Source: an uncultured Alphaproteobacteria bacterium (GTDB taxonomy: Bacteria; Pseudomonadota; Alphaproteobacteria; Geminicoccales; Geminicoccaceae). From it: a stretch of DNA of 64,000 nucleotides. Position 1 is the stretch's first letter. Every line of letters starts with the position of its first letter. The translations under genes were made by a program, and so were the position numbers. Shown piece after piece: positions 36,949 to 43,206 of this stretch. Where the stretch lies: the NCBI GenBank assembly GCA_963752325.1, contig CAVVXU010000004.1, positions 50,559 through 114,558 on the forward strand, written 5' to 3'. The notes beneath the pieces were generated by a model. It saw nothing but the letters and a program-made list of their open reading frames with translations. It did no database searches and was not told the DNA's origin.

Positions 36949-37959
36949 TCAGAATCCCGTCGCGGGCTCGCGCCAGGAATCGAGCACGCGCAGATAGTTG
37001 GCGCGCTCGAAGGCTGTAGGGTCGGGGACGTGACGCTGGCTCATGGCGCCCTTCATCTGTGCCACCGAGGCATAGCCGCGGCGCTCCATCCAGGCGGCTA
37101 GGCCGTCGCGCAGTGCGCCGAGCCGGGCCGGTCCCTCGCGCAGCAGAGCCGAGGTGGTCATGACCGCATCGGCACCGGAGAGGATGTATTTGACGACCTC
37201 GTCGGGCCCCTGGACGCCTGTGCTGGCGGCGAGCGAGGCCTGGATGCGGCCGTGCAGCACGGCGATCCAGAGAAGCGGCAGCCGAATCTCCGAGGACCTG
37301 CTGAGCTCGAGCGTGGGGGCCACCTCGAGCGCGTCGAGATCGAGGTCCGGCTGATAGAAGCGGTTGAAGAGGACGAGGCCGTTGGCTCCGGCCTCGACCA
37401 GTCGTCGGGCTAGATTGCCGAATGCGCTGTAGAAGGGGCCGAGCTTGACGGCCACCGGGATCGAGACGGCCCGCCTGACGGCCAGGAGAATGTCGAGACA
37501 ACGCTGCTCGACGGCGGCGGACGAGGTGTCGAGGTCGGCCGGGATGTGAAAGATGTTGAGCTCGATGGCGGCGGCCCCGGCCTCCTGCATGAGGGCCGCA
37601 TGCTCGGTCCAGCCTTCGCTCGTGACGCCGTTCAGGCTTGCGATGATGGGAACGCCGGTGCTGTGCGCGGCCTGCCCAAGCAGCTCCAGATAGGGCCCTG
37701 GGCCGATGCGGCTGTCCTCGACGGTTGGGAAGTAGTCGAGGGCCTCGCCGAAGCTCTCGGTGCCAGCGCTGGTCAGCCGCTCGAGAGCGGCGCGCTCCTG
37801 CCGGATCTGCTCCTCGAACAGCGAGAAGAGGACGATGGCGGCAGCCCCGCCATCCTCCAGCCGCCTTATCCCGTCGAGCGTGCGTGAGAGGGGGGAGGCC
37901 GAGGCCACGACAGGATGGGCGAGCGGCAGGCCGAGATAGGTGGTGCGGAGGTCGACCAT
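36949..37959 (-). CDS. dihydroorotate-dehydrogenase-like FMN protein (PyrD/DPD domain IV fold) with no ferredoxin domain
   Basis: ATG37959 with GAGGAG 6 nt upstream, 10 nt after the nifJ stop. ..LGLPLAHPVVASASPLS.., ..IIASLNG.., ..AIELNI.., ..VAVKLGP.., ..LFNRF.., ..STGVQGPDEVVKYILSGADAVMT.. form the class 1 DHODH-like TIM barrel pattern. Confidence 0.85.
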   Translation of the reverse strand: MVDLRTTYLGLPLAHPVVASASPLSRTLDGIRRLEDGGAAAIVLFSLFEEQIRQERAALERLTSAGTESFGEALDYFPTVEDSRIGPGPYLELLGQAAHSTGVPIIASLNGVTSEGWTEHAALMQEAGAAAIELNIFHIPADLDTSSAAVEQRCLDILLAVRRAVSIPVAVKLGPFYSAFGNLARRLVEAGANGLVLFNRFYQPDLDLDALEVAPTLELSRSSEIRLPLLWIAVLHGRIQASLAASTGVQGPDEVVKYILSGADAVMTTSALLREGPARLGALRDGLAAWMERRGYASVAQMKGAMSQRHVPDPTAFERANYLRVLDSWREPATGF

Positions 37960-37969
37960 CGAAGGCTCC

Positions 37970-40900: not shown

Positions 40901-41575
40901 CGCGCGCTGGCGGTGGGCGAGGACGAAATTGTCGTCGATCATCGCCCGTATCGTCGCATCCGGCAGCAGCTCGATCTTGTGGACCTCGTGCGAGGTCCGG
41001 AAGCCGTCGAAGAAGTGGATGAAGGGGATGCGTGCCTCGAGCGTCGCCGCCTGGGCCACGAGCGTCAGATCGTGGGCTTCCTGCACCGAGCTCGAGCAGA
41101 GCTGGGCAAAGCCCGTGGCGCGCGTCGCCATGACGTCGCTGTGGTCACCGAAGATCGAGAGGGCCTGGGCTGCGACCGAGCGGGCCGCCACATGGAAGAC
41201 GGCCGGCGTCAGCTCGCCCGCGATCTTGTACATGTTGGGGATCATGAGAAGCAGGCCCTGCGAGGCCGTGAAGGTCGTCGTCAGAGCCCCGGCCTGGAGC
41301 GCGCCGTGCACGGCGCCGGCAGCCCCGCCCTCCGCCTGCATCTCGATGATGTCGGGAACATTGCCCCAGATGTTTTTTCTGCTCTCGCTCGACCACTGGT
41401 CGGCGAGCTCGGCCATCGGCGAGGAGGGCGTGATCGGGTAGATCGCGCAGACCTCGTTCACCCGGTAGGCCACATGTGCGCAGGCCTCGTTCCCGTCGAT
41501 CGTGACCCGCTGCCCGCCTGCCGGGACCTTCGGGGACGGTCGCGTGGCAGGACGCGCTTCCAGGATTGTCGCCAT
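37970..41575 (-). CDS. nifJ: pyruvate:ferredoxin (flavodoxin) oxidoreductase, single-polypeptide type
   Basis: 1201 aa. ..IDGNEACAHVAYRVNEVCAIYPITPSSPMAE.., ..GALTTTFTASQGLLLMIPNMYKIAGE.., two CxxCxxCxxxCP ferredoxin motifs (CIQCGHCSFVCP, CTGCGLCVEVCP), and a TPP site ..GGDGWAYDIGAGGLDH... The start ATG overlaps the upstream stop (TGATG). Confidence 0.95.
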   Translation of the reverse strand: MATILEARPATRPSPKVPAGGQRVTIDGNEACAHVAYRVNEVCAIYPITPSSPMAELADQWSSESRKNIWGNVPDIIEMQAEGGAAGAVHGALQAGALTTTFTASQGLLLMIPNMYKIAGELTPAVFHVAARSVAAQALSIFGDHSDVMATRATGFAQLCSSSVQEAHDLTLVAQAATLEARIPFIHFFDGFRTSHEVHKIELLPDATIRAMIDDNFVLAHRQRALNPDNPFIRGTAQNPDVFFQARETVNPFYAATPAIVEKAMERFAQLTGRRYRLFDYWGDPAAERVLVLMGSGAEAARETVEHLAAQGAKVGVVQVHLYRPFSAAHLLEVLPASVRHVAVLDRTKEPGATGEPLYLDVVASLAEAAADGVRAMPRVIGGRYGLSSKEFTPAMVLAVLDELHKDRPKRHFTVGIRDDLAHTSLEVDPDFIIEPPEVVRAMFFGLGADGTVGANKNSIKIIGGDTNLFAQGYFVYDSKKSGSRTVSHLRFGLRPIRSTYLIQQASFVACHQFGFLEKIDVLEAAAPGAVFLLNSPWGPDEVWAKMPREAQETIVSKGLELHVIDAYEVARQAGMGGQINTIMQTCFFAISGVLPREEAIAHIKAAIEKSYGKKGKKTVERNFAAVDAALAHLHRVTVPAGAGEGAPRLPLVPSSAPAFVQKVTGLMLAGHGDDLPVSALPADGTWPSGTTAFEKRSVSLTVPVWEPSLCIQCGHCSFVCPHAVIRSKFYNEAELEVAPEGFKSAPIDARGFPDTRYTLQIYVEDCTGCGLCVEVCPVRSKERADRRAINMAEKEPLLETERTNERFFETLPVNDRGRVDFATVRGAQFLEPLFEFSGACAGCGETPYLKLATQLFGDRMIVANATGCSSIYGGNLPTTPWARNAEGRGPAWSNSLFEDNAEFGLGMRLAADKHRAMAQALARELAPALSAELVEAILTAPQRTEGQVRAVREKMAVLRQKLADLDDDRARHLLSVADHLVRRSVWLIGGDGWAYDIGAGGLDHVLSTGRDVNVLVLDTEVYSNTGGQASKATPMAAVAKFANAGKHVGKKDLALQAISYGNVYVAQVAMGGNPQQTLLAFREAEAWTGPSLILAYSHCIAHGIDMRFGLKQQSLAVHSGYWPLFRYNPALRESGVPPLVLDSQRPSVPFRDYANNELRYRMLSLTNPAEAESLMARAEEQVRRTWDLYEVMATRGEHPA

Positions 41576-43206
41576 CAGGCCGGCTCCGGGATCATCTCGA
41601 TGGCGTGGCATGGGCACTGCTCGAAGCAAACGGCGCAGCCGGTGCAGCGGTCATAGTCGTAGCGATAGCGCTTGCCCGGCCCGAGCTTGACCACAGCACC
41701 CTCGGGACAGGCGCCGTAGCAGCCGTCGCACTCGAAGCAGTTGCCGCAGGAAAGGCAGCGCTTGGCCTCGAAGCGGGCCTCCGTCTCGCCGAGCCCGCGC
41801 ACGACCTCGTCGAACGAGGCCGTTCGCCGCGCGGCGTCGAGCTCGTGCTGGCTGCGCTGCGGGGCGTCCGTGAAGTACCAGACATGCAGCTTCTCGAAGC
41901 TGGCGAGGTCGTGGGGCGGCGGCTTCTCGTAGCGACTGCCGCTCAGCCAGGCATCGATGTTGCGGGCGGCTGCCTTGCCGTGACCGACCGCGATCGTGAC
42001 AGTCCGCTCGGCCGGCACCATGTCGCCACCGGCGAAGAGGCCAGACCTGCCGGTCATCATTCCCTCGTCGACGACGACCGTGCCGTCCGTCTTGAACGCC
42101 ACGCCGGGCACCTTGCGCAGAAAGCCCGTGTCGGTGTCCTGGCCCAGTGCCAGGATCAGGGCATCGGCCTCGAGCGTCTCGAAGCGCCCGGTCGGCTGCG
42201 GCCGGCCATGCTCGTCGATCGTCATGACCTCGACCGTGAAATGCGTCTCGTCGATCGCCTTGATCGTCCGCAGCCAGTGGATCTTGACACCTTCCTCGAC
42301 CGCCTCGTCGGCCTCGAAGCCGTGCGCAGGCATGTGCTCGCGGTCGCGGCGGTAGATGATGAGCGCCTCCTCTGCGCCGAGCCGCTTGGCGACGCGGGCG
42401 GCGTCCATGGCCGTGTTGCCGCCTCCATAGATCGCGACCCTGCGCCCCAGCCGCGGTGCTTCGCCGGACTCCACGCTCTCGAGGAAGCTCACGGCATCGA
42501 GGATGCGCCCGGCGTCGCGGGCCGGGATCTCGGCACGCTTGGCGAGGTGCGCTCCCACCGCGACGAAGGCGGCATCGAAGCGACCCTCGCCGATCGCGGC
42601 CTCCAGATCCTCGACCTTGTGATCGAGGACGATCCCCACGCCGAGAGCCGCTATCCGGCTGATCTCGGCATCGAGCACGGCACGGGGCAGGCGGTAGGCC
42701 GGGATGCCGAAATGGAGCATGCCGCCCGCCATCGGCCCGGCGTCGCGGATCTCGACCGTGTGGCCGTGGCGGCGGAGATGATAGGCGGCCGAGAGGCCCG
42801 AGGGCCCAGCACCCACGACGAGAACGCGCTTGCCGGTCTCCGCTTCCGGCGCCGGCAGGCTCCAGCCGCGCTCGAGCGCAAGGTCGCCCAGGAACCGCTC
42901 GACCGCGTGGATGCTGACGGCGCTGTCGAGCTCGCCGCGGTTACAGGCGCTCTCGCAGGGATGATAGCAGACACGGCCGTGAATGGCGGGAAAGGGGTTG
43001 TCCTGGACGAGCCGGCGCCAAGCCGTCTCGAAGTCGCCGCCCTGGGCGGCGTCGAGCCAGCTTTGGATATTCTCGCCGGCCGGGCAGGCGTGATTGCAGG
43101 GCGGCAGGAGGTCGACATAAAGCGGGCGTTGCGTGCGAAACGGACCCGTCCGCCGCTCGCGTGCGAGATCGGGCTCGACTGTCAGATCATTGGGTCTCGC
43201 CGGCAC
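41575..43206 (-). CDS. GltD-like NAD(P)H:FAD oxidoreductase with a C-terminal 2x[4Fe-4S] ferredoxin domain
   Basis: 543 aa. The N-terminal cluster region ..LLPPCNHACPAGENIQSW..CYHPCESAC.. resembles the glutamate synthase small subunit. Dinucleotide folds VLVVGAGPSGLSAA and VAIYGGGNTAMD. C-terminal CLSCGNCFECDGCYGACP ... CTGCAVCFEQCPCHAI. Confidence 0.9.
   Translation of the reverse strand: MPARPNDLTVEPDLARERRTGPFRTQRPLYVDLLPPCNHACPAGENIQSWLDAAQGGDFETAWRRLVQDNPFPAIHGRVCYHPCESACNRGELDSAVSIHAVERFLGDLALERGWSLPAPEAETGKRVLVVGAGPSGLSAAYHLRRHGHTVEIRDAGPMAGGMLHFGIPAYRLPRAVLDAEISRIAALGVGIVLDHKVEDLEAAIGEGRFDAAFVAVGAHLAKRAEIPARDAGRILDAVSFLESVESGEAPRLGRRVAIYGGGNTAMDAARVAKRLGAEEALIIYRRDREHMPAHGFEADEAVEEGVKIHWLRTIKAIDETHFTVEVMTIDEHGRPQPTGRFETLEADALILALGQDTDTGFLRKVPGVAFKTDGTVVVDEGMMTGRSGLFAGGDMVPAERTVTIAVGHGKAAARNIDAWLSGSRYEKPPPHDLASFEKLHVWYFTDAPQRSQHELDAARRTASFDEVVRGLGETEARFEAKRCLSCGNCFECDGCYGACPEGAVVKLGPGKRYRYDYDRCTGCAVCFEQCPCHAIEMIPEPA

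Follow-up and report, generated by a model that had tools for sequence, protein, structure and literature searches.

Two candidate flavoprotein electron exits in a pyruvate:ferredoxin oxidoreductase operon of an uncultured Geminicoccaceae bacterium

Pyruvate:ferredoxin (flavodoxin) oxidoreductase (PFOR) is commonly regarded as an enzyme of anaerobes that depends on ferredoxin or flavodoxin. A 64,000-nucleotide stretch of DNA (the window; 68% G+C) from an uncultured alphaproteobacterium of the family Geminicoccaceae (GenBank assembly GCA_963752325.1, contig CAVVXU010000004.1) raises the question of why a PFOR gene should stand between two flavoprotein genes in an operon that has no gene for a free ferredoxin. 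Three open reading frames (ORFs) of the minus strand, in the order A-B-C, span positions 43206-36949 and encode a GltD-like flavoprotein (A), the PFOR (B), and an FMN-barrel protein with the fold of dihydroorotate dehydrogenase (DHOD) (C). An earlier reading made without database searches (hereafter, the sequence-only reading) had taken A and C for a rearranged pair resembling dihydropyrimidine dehydrogenase (DPD), and had proposed that PFOR electrons reach NAD(P)+ through a ferredoxin tail and the FAD of A. The analysis reported here speaks for a PFOR from which electrons leave through two independent flavoproteins, rather than for a split DPD; we assign this reading a probability of about 0.5. 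Its first part, that A turns PFOR into a pyruvate:NADP+ oxidoreductase (PNO), is fairly probable; its second part, that C is another, FMN-based exit from PFOR, is put forward more tentatively.

The conservation of the arrangement was assessed in two scans. The C-anchored scan, with one genome per GTDB species, gave at least 582 confirmed relatives, the best 80 loci of which were used for the counts; the A-anchored scan covered metagenomes, and its counts come only from loci with enough flanking sequence. The same gene order was met again in more than 150 loci of many phyla and is therefore not due to chance, which confirms the operon as real and strongly conserved. The best 80 C loci belonged to Proteobacteria, Acidobacteriota, Bacteroidota, Chloroflexota, Verrucomicrobiota, Gemmatimonadota, Ignavibacteriota, Deinococcota and others. 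Of the 77 C loci with upstream sequence, 75 had PFOR as the immediately preceding gene of that strand (median spacing, ~80 nt), and in 71 of 76 metagenome loci PFOR came directly after A. An A homologue preceded PFOR in 18 of the 57 C-anchored loci with room for one, and the remaining 39 had PFOR and C without A. When the A-anchored loci with a complete PFOR and sufficient room were considered (n = 44), C came next in 29 and was missing from 15, and the genes downstream of these 15 A-B pairs were unrelated to one another. The A-B-C, B-C and A-B forms are thus all represented, with PFOR as the constant hub, C as its most frequent partner and A as an accessory in a subset. The sequence-only reading had missed this point: it is C, not A, that is the widely conserved partner of PFOR. 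Clustering of the flanking ORFs and a search among them for ferredoxins, flavodoxins, regulators and transporters gave nothing recurrent beyond A, B and C. Pairwise distances over 48 complete trios correlated best between B and C (r = 0.79), followed by A-B (0.57) and A-C (0.47); as values uncorrected for species phylogeny, they make the B-C correlation only supportive.

These counts bear directly on the supposed DPD-like pair. According to that explanation, A and C would make up a domain-swapped enzyme of the DPD/PreTA type, in which electrons run from NADPH to FAD, through the clusters of A including the tail, to the FMN of C and on to a substrate, with PFOR as an extra donor. A and C do jointly hold every domain type of DPD and PreT-PreA (N-terminal Fe-S, FAD, NADPH, FMN barrel and 2x[4Fe-4S] ferredoxin), the folds nearest to the AlphaFold2 (AF2) model of C are DPD structures, and the full trio is the larger of the two A-anchored groups (29/44). 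However, the co-occurrence of the three genes reveals no obligate A-C pair, given that 39/57 loci have PFOR and C without A and 15/44 have A and PFOR without C, and the A-C distance correlation is the weakest of the three. The architecture also differs from that of DPD and PreT-PreA, in that the ferredoxin domain is on the GltD-like A and not on the FMN barrel, as had been noticed from the letters alone and as Pfam and NCBIfam agree, and in that PFOR stands between A and C. Furthermore, the tail of A is PorD-like rather than PreA-like; its flavin and Fe-S core is a permuted NfnB/StnC-type module and nothing specific to PreT, with far stronger matches to StnC and NfnB (E 1e-89 to 1e-63) than the match to DPD (E 1e-26); and C, a distinct family, lacks the catalytic Cys of DPD and DHOD (Cys671 in DPD has no counterpart) as well as the Lys43 equivalent. 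Because A and C occur independently, the tail is PorD-like and C is without the DPD catalytic residues, a split-DPD pair is unsupported, and we regard it as improbable.

The gene coordinates, sizes, tight spacing and domain inventory on which the sequence-only reading was built are borne out (Table 1), and a start at the ATG of TGATG gives PFOR the 1201 aa stated there. The stop codon of A and the ATG of B overlap by one base (TGATG, in the context cc TGATG gcg), whereas B and C are merely close: C most likely starts at an ATG 10 nt past the PFOR stop, with a GGAG ribosome-binding site in the spacer (37966-37969), and no overlap exists unless an alternative, longer ORF from a GTG at 37989 is considered, which would overlap PFOR. 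Gene A starts at a GTG with GGGAG 7 nt upstream, and its homologues align from residue 1. A promoter and terminator scan of 36300-43700 found no sigma-70-like promoter match and terminator-like sites at chance level, a result that is uninformative at 68% G+C.

Gene A matched the NCBIfam model PRK12771, 'NAD(P)-binding protein', with 784 bits (cut-off, 516); residues 6-541 covered model positions 19-565 of 566, the C-terminal dicluster domain included, and Pfam Fer4_21 was found at residues 489-538. The best matches among solved structures were the NfnB-type modules in StnC of the Sporomusa StnABC transhydrogenase (8oh5_C) and in the related 'molybdopterin oxidoreductase' 9bov_A (E 1e-87 to 1e-89), followed by NfnA (9n5u), NfnB (5jca_L, E 1e-63; 4ylf_B) and then GltD; DPD was only a distant match. 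The motifs GAGPSG, YGGGNTAMD and IYRRD are conserved in 91-100% of 99 A homologues. In GltD-type enzymes, the Arg pair of the YRR motif binds the 2'-phosphate of NADPH.

The Fe-S domain of A is arranged differently from that of NfnB and GltD. Alignments showed that A is without their N-terminal RCLxC Cys pair and begins at a '(P)PCxxxCP' element, and that an invariant RCLSCG (residues 483-488) follows the flavin domains and is contiguous with the ferredoxin motifs. StnC has the same layout, with RCLxCG behind the flavin domains, and 9bov_A is likewise permuted; StnC carries in addition a ~600-aa formate-dehydrogenase-like domain and a ~98-aa N-terminal extension, whereas A ends in a 60-aa PorD-like domain. 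We read the Fe-S domain of A as a circular permutation of the NfnB/GltD type. Across the 99 homologues 15 Cys are invariant, and these fit four predicted [4Fe-4S] sites, namely cluster 1 (Cys41/80/84/88), cluster 2 (Cys37/484/487) and two ferredoxin-type clusters (Cys490/493/496/500 and Cys521/524/527/531). At the equivalent of cluster 2, NfnB has a Glu ligand and DPD a Gln.

Outside its own family, the tail of A was matched best by PorD models (47.6 and 45.4 bits, E ~1e-12), compared with 20 bits (E 2e-4) for the PreA ferredoxin domain. The 45.4 bits were obtained with TIGR02179 (PorD_KorD), the cut-off of which is 60.05 bits; a homologue of A in locus L143 reached 60.0 bits. In that locus (cluster at 4050-8623) and in L133, L152 and L156, the genes are PorC-PorA-PorB followed by an A homologue (66-68% identical, PRK12771 781 bits), the start of which runs into the end of PorB. 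In these four metagenome loci, ferredoxin motifs are confined to the tail of the A homologue; therefore, a separate PorD is missing, and the A homologue presumably supplies both the delta subunit of the 2-oxoacid:ferredoxin oxidoreductase (OFOR) and the link to pyridine nucleotide. Such a locus looks like a predicted NAD(P)-linked multi-subunit 2-oxoacid oxidoreductase. Upstream of the L143-type cluster lies an RraA/aldolase-like gene. The design of the PorCAB loci with A resembles those of the phenylglyoxylate:NAD+ oxidoreductase PadEFGHI and the Azoarcus evansii 2-oxoglutarate:NADP+ oxidoreductase, which reportedly join an OFOR core to an Fe-S flavoprotein leading to pyridine nucleotide. These enzymes differ in having other 2-oxoacid substrates and multi-subunit cores, and we know of no DHOD-like partner for them.

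The PorD-like tail, the replacement of PorD, the YRR motif and the adjacency of A and PFOR all fit the idea that electrons of PFOR reach NAD(P)+ by way of the ferredoxin tail and FAD, which is the best-supported part of the sequence-only reading. We propose that A would dock on PFOR via its PorD-like 2x[4Fe-4S] tail and that the electrons of pyruvate would travel over the three clusters of PFOR and the four predicted clusters of A to its FAD and then to NADP+. The net reaction would be pyruvate + CoA + NADP+ -> acetyl-CoA + CO2 + NADPH, free ferredoxin would not be needed, and PFOR plus A would amount to a multi-subunit bacterial counterpart of PNO. In the PNO of Euglena gracilis and Cryptosporidium, PFOR is fused to an FMN/FAD domain resembling NADPH-cytochrome-P450 reductase (CPR). 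The likeness is that PFOR electrons would reach NADP+ via a bound flavoprotein module without the use of free ferredoxin; the difference is that the module here is a separate FAD protein of the GltD/NfnB type with four predicted [4Fe-4S] clusters, accompanied by the additional FMN barrel C. A comparable design is found in DsrL of sulfur oxidisers: a C-terminal ferredoxin domain connects this GltD-like NAD(P)H oxidoreductase to DsrAB, a different partner enzyme that belongs to a different pathway.

The docking of A has to be weighed against an arrangement without any stable complex. In this case A, with its built-in ferredoxin, would work as a soluble ferredoxin:NADP+ reductase and C as a redox enzyme in its own right; co-expression would be their only tie to PFOR, which would use free ferredoxin or flavodoxin encoded elsewhere. 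Soluble carriers are usual for PFORs, and GltD-like ferredoxin:NADP+ oxidoreductases function as free enzymes. Moreover, a few B-C loci have a small ferredoxin gene after C: in L023 (11073), L045 (11177) and L015 (12005), C is followed after 70-1100 nt by a ferredoxin ORF of 64-69 aa. All three loci have PFOR and C and no A, and no such ORF was seen in A-containing loci. However, the A homologues that stand in for the obligatory PorD in PorCAB operons imply tight binding, the PFOR-C order is kept across many phyla at close spacing, and a small ferredoxin gene was found near the cluster in ~6 of 157 loci only, none being near ~96% of them. Within the 64-kb window, CxxCxxCxx(x)C motifs occurred only in A, PFOR and one hydrogenase Fe-S subunit, which agrees with the earlier statement that the operon has no free ferredoxin. 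We consider mere co-expression rather unlikely.

There are precedents for A. CAC0764, a GltD-like protein that stands alone, is a ferredoxin:NADP+ reductase that depends strictly on NADP and does not bifurcate (PMC9365771), and NfnB-like AadN of Rhodopseudomonas palustris is a further precedent for such a module working with low-potential carriers (PMC9973337). A shares with NfnB, GltD and CAC0764 (5jca_L, 4ylf_B; PMC9365771) the FAD and NADPH domains, the YRR motif, the helical two-cluster Fe-S domain and, as a predicted type of function, that of an NADPH:low-potential-carrier oxidoreductase. It differs from these proteins in the RCxxC pair behind the flavin domains, in the appended PorD-like domain, and in its gene being directly upstream of PFOR and not beside NfnA or GltB. 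The NfnB-like module of A is not matched by an NfnA-like gene in the operon, and the sole FNR-like gene nearby belongs to the hydrogenase cluster described below.

The kinship with NfnB, whose module is a bifurcating subunit homologous to the flavin module of A, is also a reason to consider that the trio forms a bifurcating or confurcating complex, in which the FAD of A would couple PFOR, NADP(H) and, via the FMN of C, a higher-potential acceptor such as quinone or NAD+. If this were true, energy of the pyruvate electrons would be conserved, or pyruvate synthesis from NADPH would be allowed. Direct transfer from pyruvate to NADP+ loses ~180 mV, and the idea has been published, together with co-transcription and knockout data for PFOR: McCubbin et al. 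(2020) report that GltD-like and DHOD-like genes flank the main PFOR of propionibacteria and are co-transcribed and co-regulated with it, that a PFOR knockout in Propionibacterium has a growth defect, and they propose a quinol-linked bifurcating complex without biochemistry (PMC7650540). The Propionibacterium trio comprises the same three gene types around PFOR as the window operon; conservation of the DHOD-like partner across phyla independently of the GltD-like one is not mentioned in that paper (PMC7650540). Several features speak against bifurcation. Since A-B and B-C forms are frequent, neither accessory protein needs the other; C is without an Fe-S cluster that could stand in for the [2Fe-2S] cluster of NfnA beside the bifurcating FAD, and without the quinone-binding N-terminal domain of class-2 DHODs; and CAC0764, a stand-alone NfnB homologue, is non-bifurcating (PMC9365771). 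We judge bifurcation by the trio to be unlikely. Running in reverse, as NADPH-driven pyruvate synthesis, was considered thermodynamically unlikely unless bifurcation is involved. The trio is less new than the sequence-only reading had supposed, because it is the subject of the Propionibacterium hypothesis, yet it is still uncharacterised: the literature searched contained no characterisation of the trio or of either accessory protein.

Turning to the second proposed exit, gene C matched PRK07565, 'dihydroorotate dehydrogenase-like protein', with 445 bits (cut-off, 303), residues 11-340 of the longer C ORF corresponding to model positions 1-330 of 335. Its match to PreA (58 bits; cut-off, 335) was restricted to the barrel part, positions 1-324 of 422, and C is therefore without an Fe-S domain. 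The AF2 model of C, with a mean predicted local distance difference test (pLDDT) score of 80, is a TIM barrel closest to the FMN domain of DPD and to class-1 DHODs, at 15-18% identity, and a sequence search of solved structures found no relative closer than these. The family comprises 1046 clusters (50% identity, E <= 1e-30) with a uniform length of ~330-340 aa, and no fusion to a ferredoxin domain was seen in the top 150 representatives.

In 110 members of the family, the elements that hold FMN are kept, namely K172 (in VKL), N110, N135, N199, G248, G262 and S270. The catalytic Cys of the ELN(I/L)SCPN motif is gone; the window has ELNIFHIP, and the position is Tyr in 73, Phe in 20, Ser in 7 and His in 5 of the 110. 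The region expected to contain the Lys43 equivalent and the orotate loops (GN/N-x-G-x-N) instead has an invariant SLFEEQ, behind which come a long helix and a loop; the residue equivalence is inferred from motif order, and the profile alignment with DHOD structures begins only at residue 102. Lys43 is the L. lactis DHODA number of the conserved Lys after strand 2. New invariant motifs are FNRFYQPD, S220, R226, W231 and a C-terminal (E)RxNY. By these residues, C very probably binds FMN without being a dehydrogenase of dihydroorotate or dihydropyrimidines. The common label 'dihydroorotate dehydrogenase (fumarate)' is unsupported for the family: besides the loss of the catalytic Cys and the Lys43 equivalent, the scores of C are below the curated cut-offs, with 24.6 bits for Pfam DHO_dh (threshold, 27) and ~62 bits for the best DHOD equivalogs (cut-offs, 269-330), and the true or fumarate-type DHOD given as the JGI label was rejected on these grounds. 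Class-2 DHODs have Ser in place of the class-1 catalytic Cys. A class-2 (quinone) enzyme was considered less likely, as C starts at strand 1 of the barrel and is without the N-terminal quinone-tunnel domain.

C is a more constant partner of PFOR than A and would also be an older one. Since it has no cluster of its own and nearly always follows PFOR, the simplest mechanism would be that its FMN takes electrons from the ferredoxin-like domain V of PFOR. There are analogies for this: the FMN of PreA and DPD is fed by their own ferredoxin domain, and that of DHOD-B by the PyrK cluster. The electrons would then go to an acceptor other than dihydroorotate or a dihydropyrimidine, candidates being NAD+, quinone, or an enoate such as fumarate.

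Alternatively, C might be a maintenance factor of PFOR in oxygen-exposed bacteria: its FMN could drain electrons or scavenge O2 and so shield the clusters and the radical intermediate, or C could reactivate PFOR reductively. This would agree with the many aerobic or facultative carriers (Acidobacteriota, Chitinophagaceae, Gemmatimonadales and cyanobacteria) and with the loss of the classical substrate and catalytic residues while the FMN elements are kept. However, the conserved, remodelled pocket (SLFEEQ, FNRFYQPD, R226, W231, R319 and Y322) suggests a specific ligand or interface, and the family is also found in Anaerolineae, Ignavibacteriota and Omnitrophota, which are rich in anaerobes. 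A maintenance role is very improbable in our estimation.

The PFOR itself is a canonical single-chain form of the NifJ type. It matched TIGR02176 with 1770 bits (cut-off, 911) over model positions 2-1166 of 1167, and its Pfam domains are POR_N, PFOR_II, POR, EKR, the 2x[4Fe-4S] domain V and a C-terminal thiamine-pyrophosphate-binding domain. Residues 24-1194 matched the Moorella structure 6cin_A and residues 22-1184 the Desulfovibrio structure 1b0p_A. The protein ends at the usual C-terminus (residue 1194 of 1201 aligns to the end of 6cin), no CPR-like domain was found in it, and it is not a fusion of the eukaryotic PNO type. The residues that set apart the PFORs of A-containing loci are concentrated around domain V (746-827) and at 1055-1095, which could be the signal of an interface with A.

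Several observations weigh against two electron exits from PFOR. The adjacency of genes is no proof of a complex, and the A-linked residues of PFOR may reflect shared descent. PFORs from C-containing loci had no specific indels and a single specific residue (Q513), which gives no support for a docking element specific to C. PFOR has a ferredoxin domain of its own, and the tail of A could be an ordinary built-in shuttle of the transient kind. The invariant Cys of A supply just three of the four ligands of predicted cluster 2; the AF2 model of A, with a mean pLDDT of 62 and values below 50 in the tail and the Fe-S regions, is too poor for judging cluster geometry. For C, the substrate site is remodelled and the acceptor is a guess. 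Passing electrons at -500 mV straight to NADP+ would waste energy, which leaves room for bifurcation or confurcation, and a hydrogenase adjoins just ~7 of 161 loci. What the analysis shows is gene content, cofactor motifs and synteny statistics; a physical complex, the direction in which electrons flow and every substrate are our inferences.

A bolder extension of the two-exit reading is that PFOR and the PRK07565 protein form a widespread, unrecognised two-protein enzyme, spread over more than 580 species representatives, with the Synechocystis nifJ operon as a probable member, in which the bound FMN is the exit to a non-ferredoxin acceptor (e.g., NAD+ feeding Hox-type hydrogenases, or quinone) and which, together with A, would become a bifurcating or confurcating pyruvate:NADP+/X oxidoreductase. 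We hold this as possible but doubtful. If true, it would change the textbook view that bacterial PFOR uses soluble carriers only. The Synechocystis nifJ operon contains sll0744, which is annotated as a dihydroorotate dehydrogenase and is induced together with hox under microoxic conditions (PMC11368403). This protein, from a genetically tractable cyanobacterium, probably belongs to the C family.

The loci suggest that many aerobic or facultative bacteria give PFOR dedicated flavoprotein exits. If so, the use of PFOR without an obvious ferredoxin sink would be explained, and NADPH from pyruvate oxidation would become directly available for biosynthesis or for NAD(P)-linked hydrogenases. Large as it is, the C family is routinely misnamed by annotation pipelines and has no solved structure, and both PRK12771 and PRK07565 proteins could be annotated from their PFOR context. 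The full trio is prominent in glycogen-accumulating bacteria of wastewater (Contendobacter, Competibacteraceae, Defluviicoccus) and in Saprospiraceae and Chitinophagaceae from sludge (L003, L004, L006; protein P0190); in the glycogen accumulators, a direct supply of NADPH could matter for polyhydroxyalkanoate synthesis. In three Saprospiraceae loci (L042, L054 and L056), A and PFOR are 66-69% identical to those of the window, as in Proteobacteria, and C is 51-54% identical, which hints that A and PFOR travel as a cassette apart from C.

Table 1. Coordinates of the operon, of its domains and of the adjoining features in the window.
Feature	Position	Strand	Basis
Gene A: 543-aa NAD(P)H/FAD-binding Fe-S flavoprotein, GltD/NfnB/StnC-like with PorD-like tail	41575..43206	-	Pfam, NCBIfam PRK12771, structure-profile matches
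Gene A, residues 35-114: helical Fe-S domain (Fer4_20, profile positions 30-112 only)	42865..43104	-	Pfam
Gene A, residues 127-410: FAD (GAGPSG) and NAD(P)H (YGGGNTAMD ... IYRRD) Rossmann domains, Pyr_redox_2	41977..42828	-	Pfam, motif conservation
Gene A, residues 478-543: RCLSCG Cys pair, then two CxxCxxCxxxCP motifs, PorD-like ferredoxin tail	41578..41775	-	Motif search, alignments
Gene B: 1201-aa single-chain pyruvate:ferredoxin (flavodoxin) oxidoreductase, NifJ type	37970..41575	-	TIGR02176, Pfam, 6cin/1b0p matches
PFOR domain V: internal 2x[4Fe-4S] ferredoxin domain	39233..39469	-	Pfam, motif search
Gene C: 336-aa DHOD-fold FMN TIM-barrel protein (PRK07565), without Fe-S domain	36949..37959	-	NCBIfam, AF2 fold, alignments
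Divergent intergenic region between gene A and the hydrogenase cluster; presumed promoter site	43207..43470	.	Position
Divergent group-3b-like NAD(P)-linked [NiFe]-hydrogenase cluster, five genes	43471..47922	+	Domain and homology searches

The surroundings of the operon offer a candidate sink for NADPH in this organism. The divergent hydrogenase cluster consists of genes for a Fer4_22 Fe-S subunit, a cyclic-nucleotide (cNMP)-binding protein, an FNR-like subunit, and the small and large subunits, a content that is that of NADP-linked group 3b hydrogenases. Here, NADPH would probably be reoxidised by this [NiFe]-hydrogenase, resulting in pyruvate-driven H2 formation under oxygen limitation. A relative with 95% DNA identity (L081) keeps the trio and the hydrogenase in the same arrangement, and the same hydrogenase type adjoins the trio in L155, where it is co-directional, and in L105. 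The genes hoxEFUYH, which encode the bidirectional NAD-linked [NiFe]-hydrogenase, are found next to the C family as well: L028 (Trueperaceae; 6415-16143) has PFOR-C-hoxEFUYH, L053 (6412-19067) has hoxEFUYH a few kb downstream of PFOR-C and an acetyl-CoA hydrolase/transferase gene after PFOR-C, and in L038 (4483-10795) C stands directly before hoxEFUYH with no PFOR nearby. These links, few but consistent, point to pyruvate-driven reduction of NAD(P)+ and release of H2 when oxygen is limiting.

Two details of the hydrogenase cluster deserve mention. A cNMP-binding gene within a hydrogenase operon is unusual, and its product may be a regulator. The FNR-like subunit (ORF 44986-46314) is in two frames when compared with the 287-aa protein of L081, amino acids 1-235 being encoded at 44992-45696 and 233-288 at 45689-45856; the break at ~45690 reflects either an assembly indel or a frameshift with loss of the [2Fe-2S] domain. 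In L081 itself, gene A is called as a 367-aa fragment plus a spurious 183-aa gene on the opposite strand (4696-6385), probably as the result of an assembly indel error, as 23 gaps separate its sequence from the window over 11 kb; the window copy is intact.

On the other side of the operon, the synteny between the window and L081 stops 4 nt past the stop codon of C (window position 36945). Beyond this point the window contains a 248-aa ORF without a Pfam match (35999-36745), a truncated phage-type integrase with the arm-binding and central domains only (34976-35617), and an IS3-type rve fragment (33937-34584). The items between 33937 and 36745 are remnants of a mobile element.

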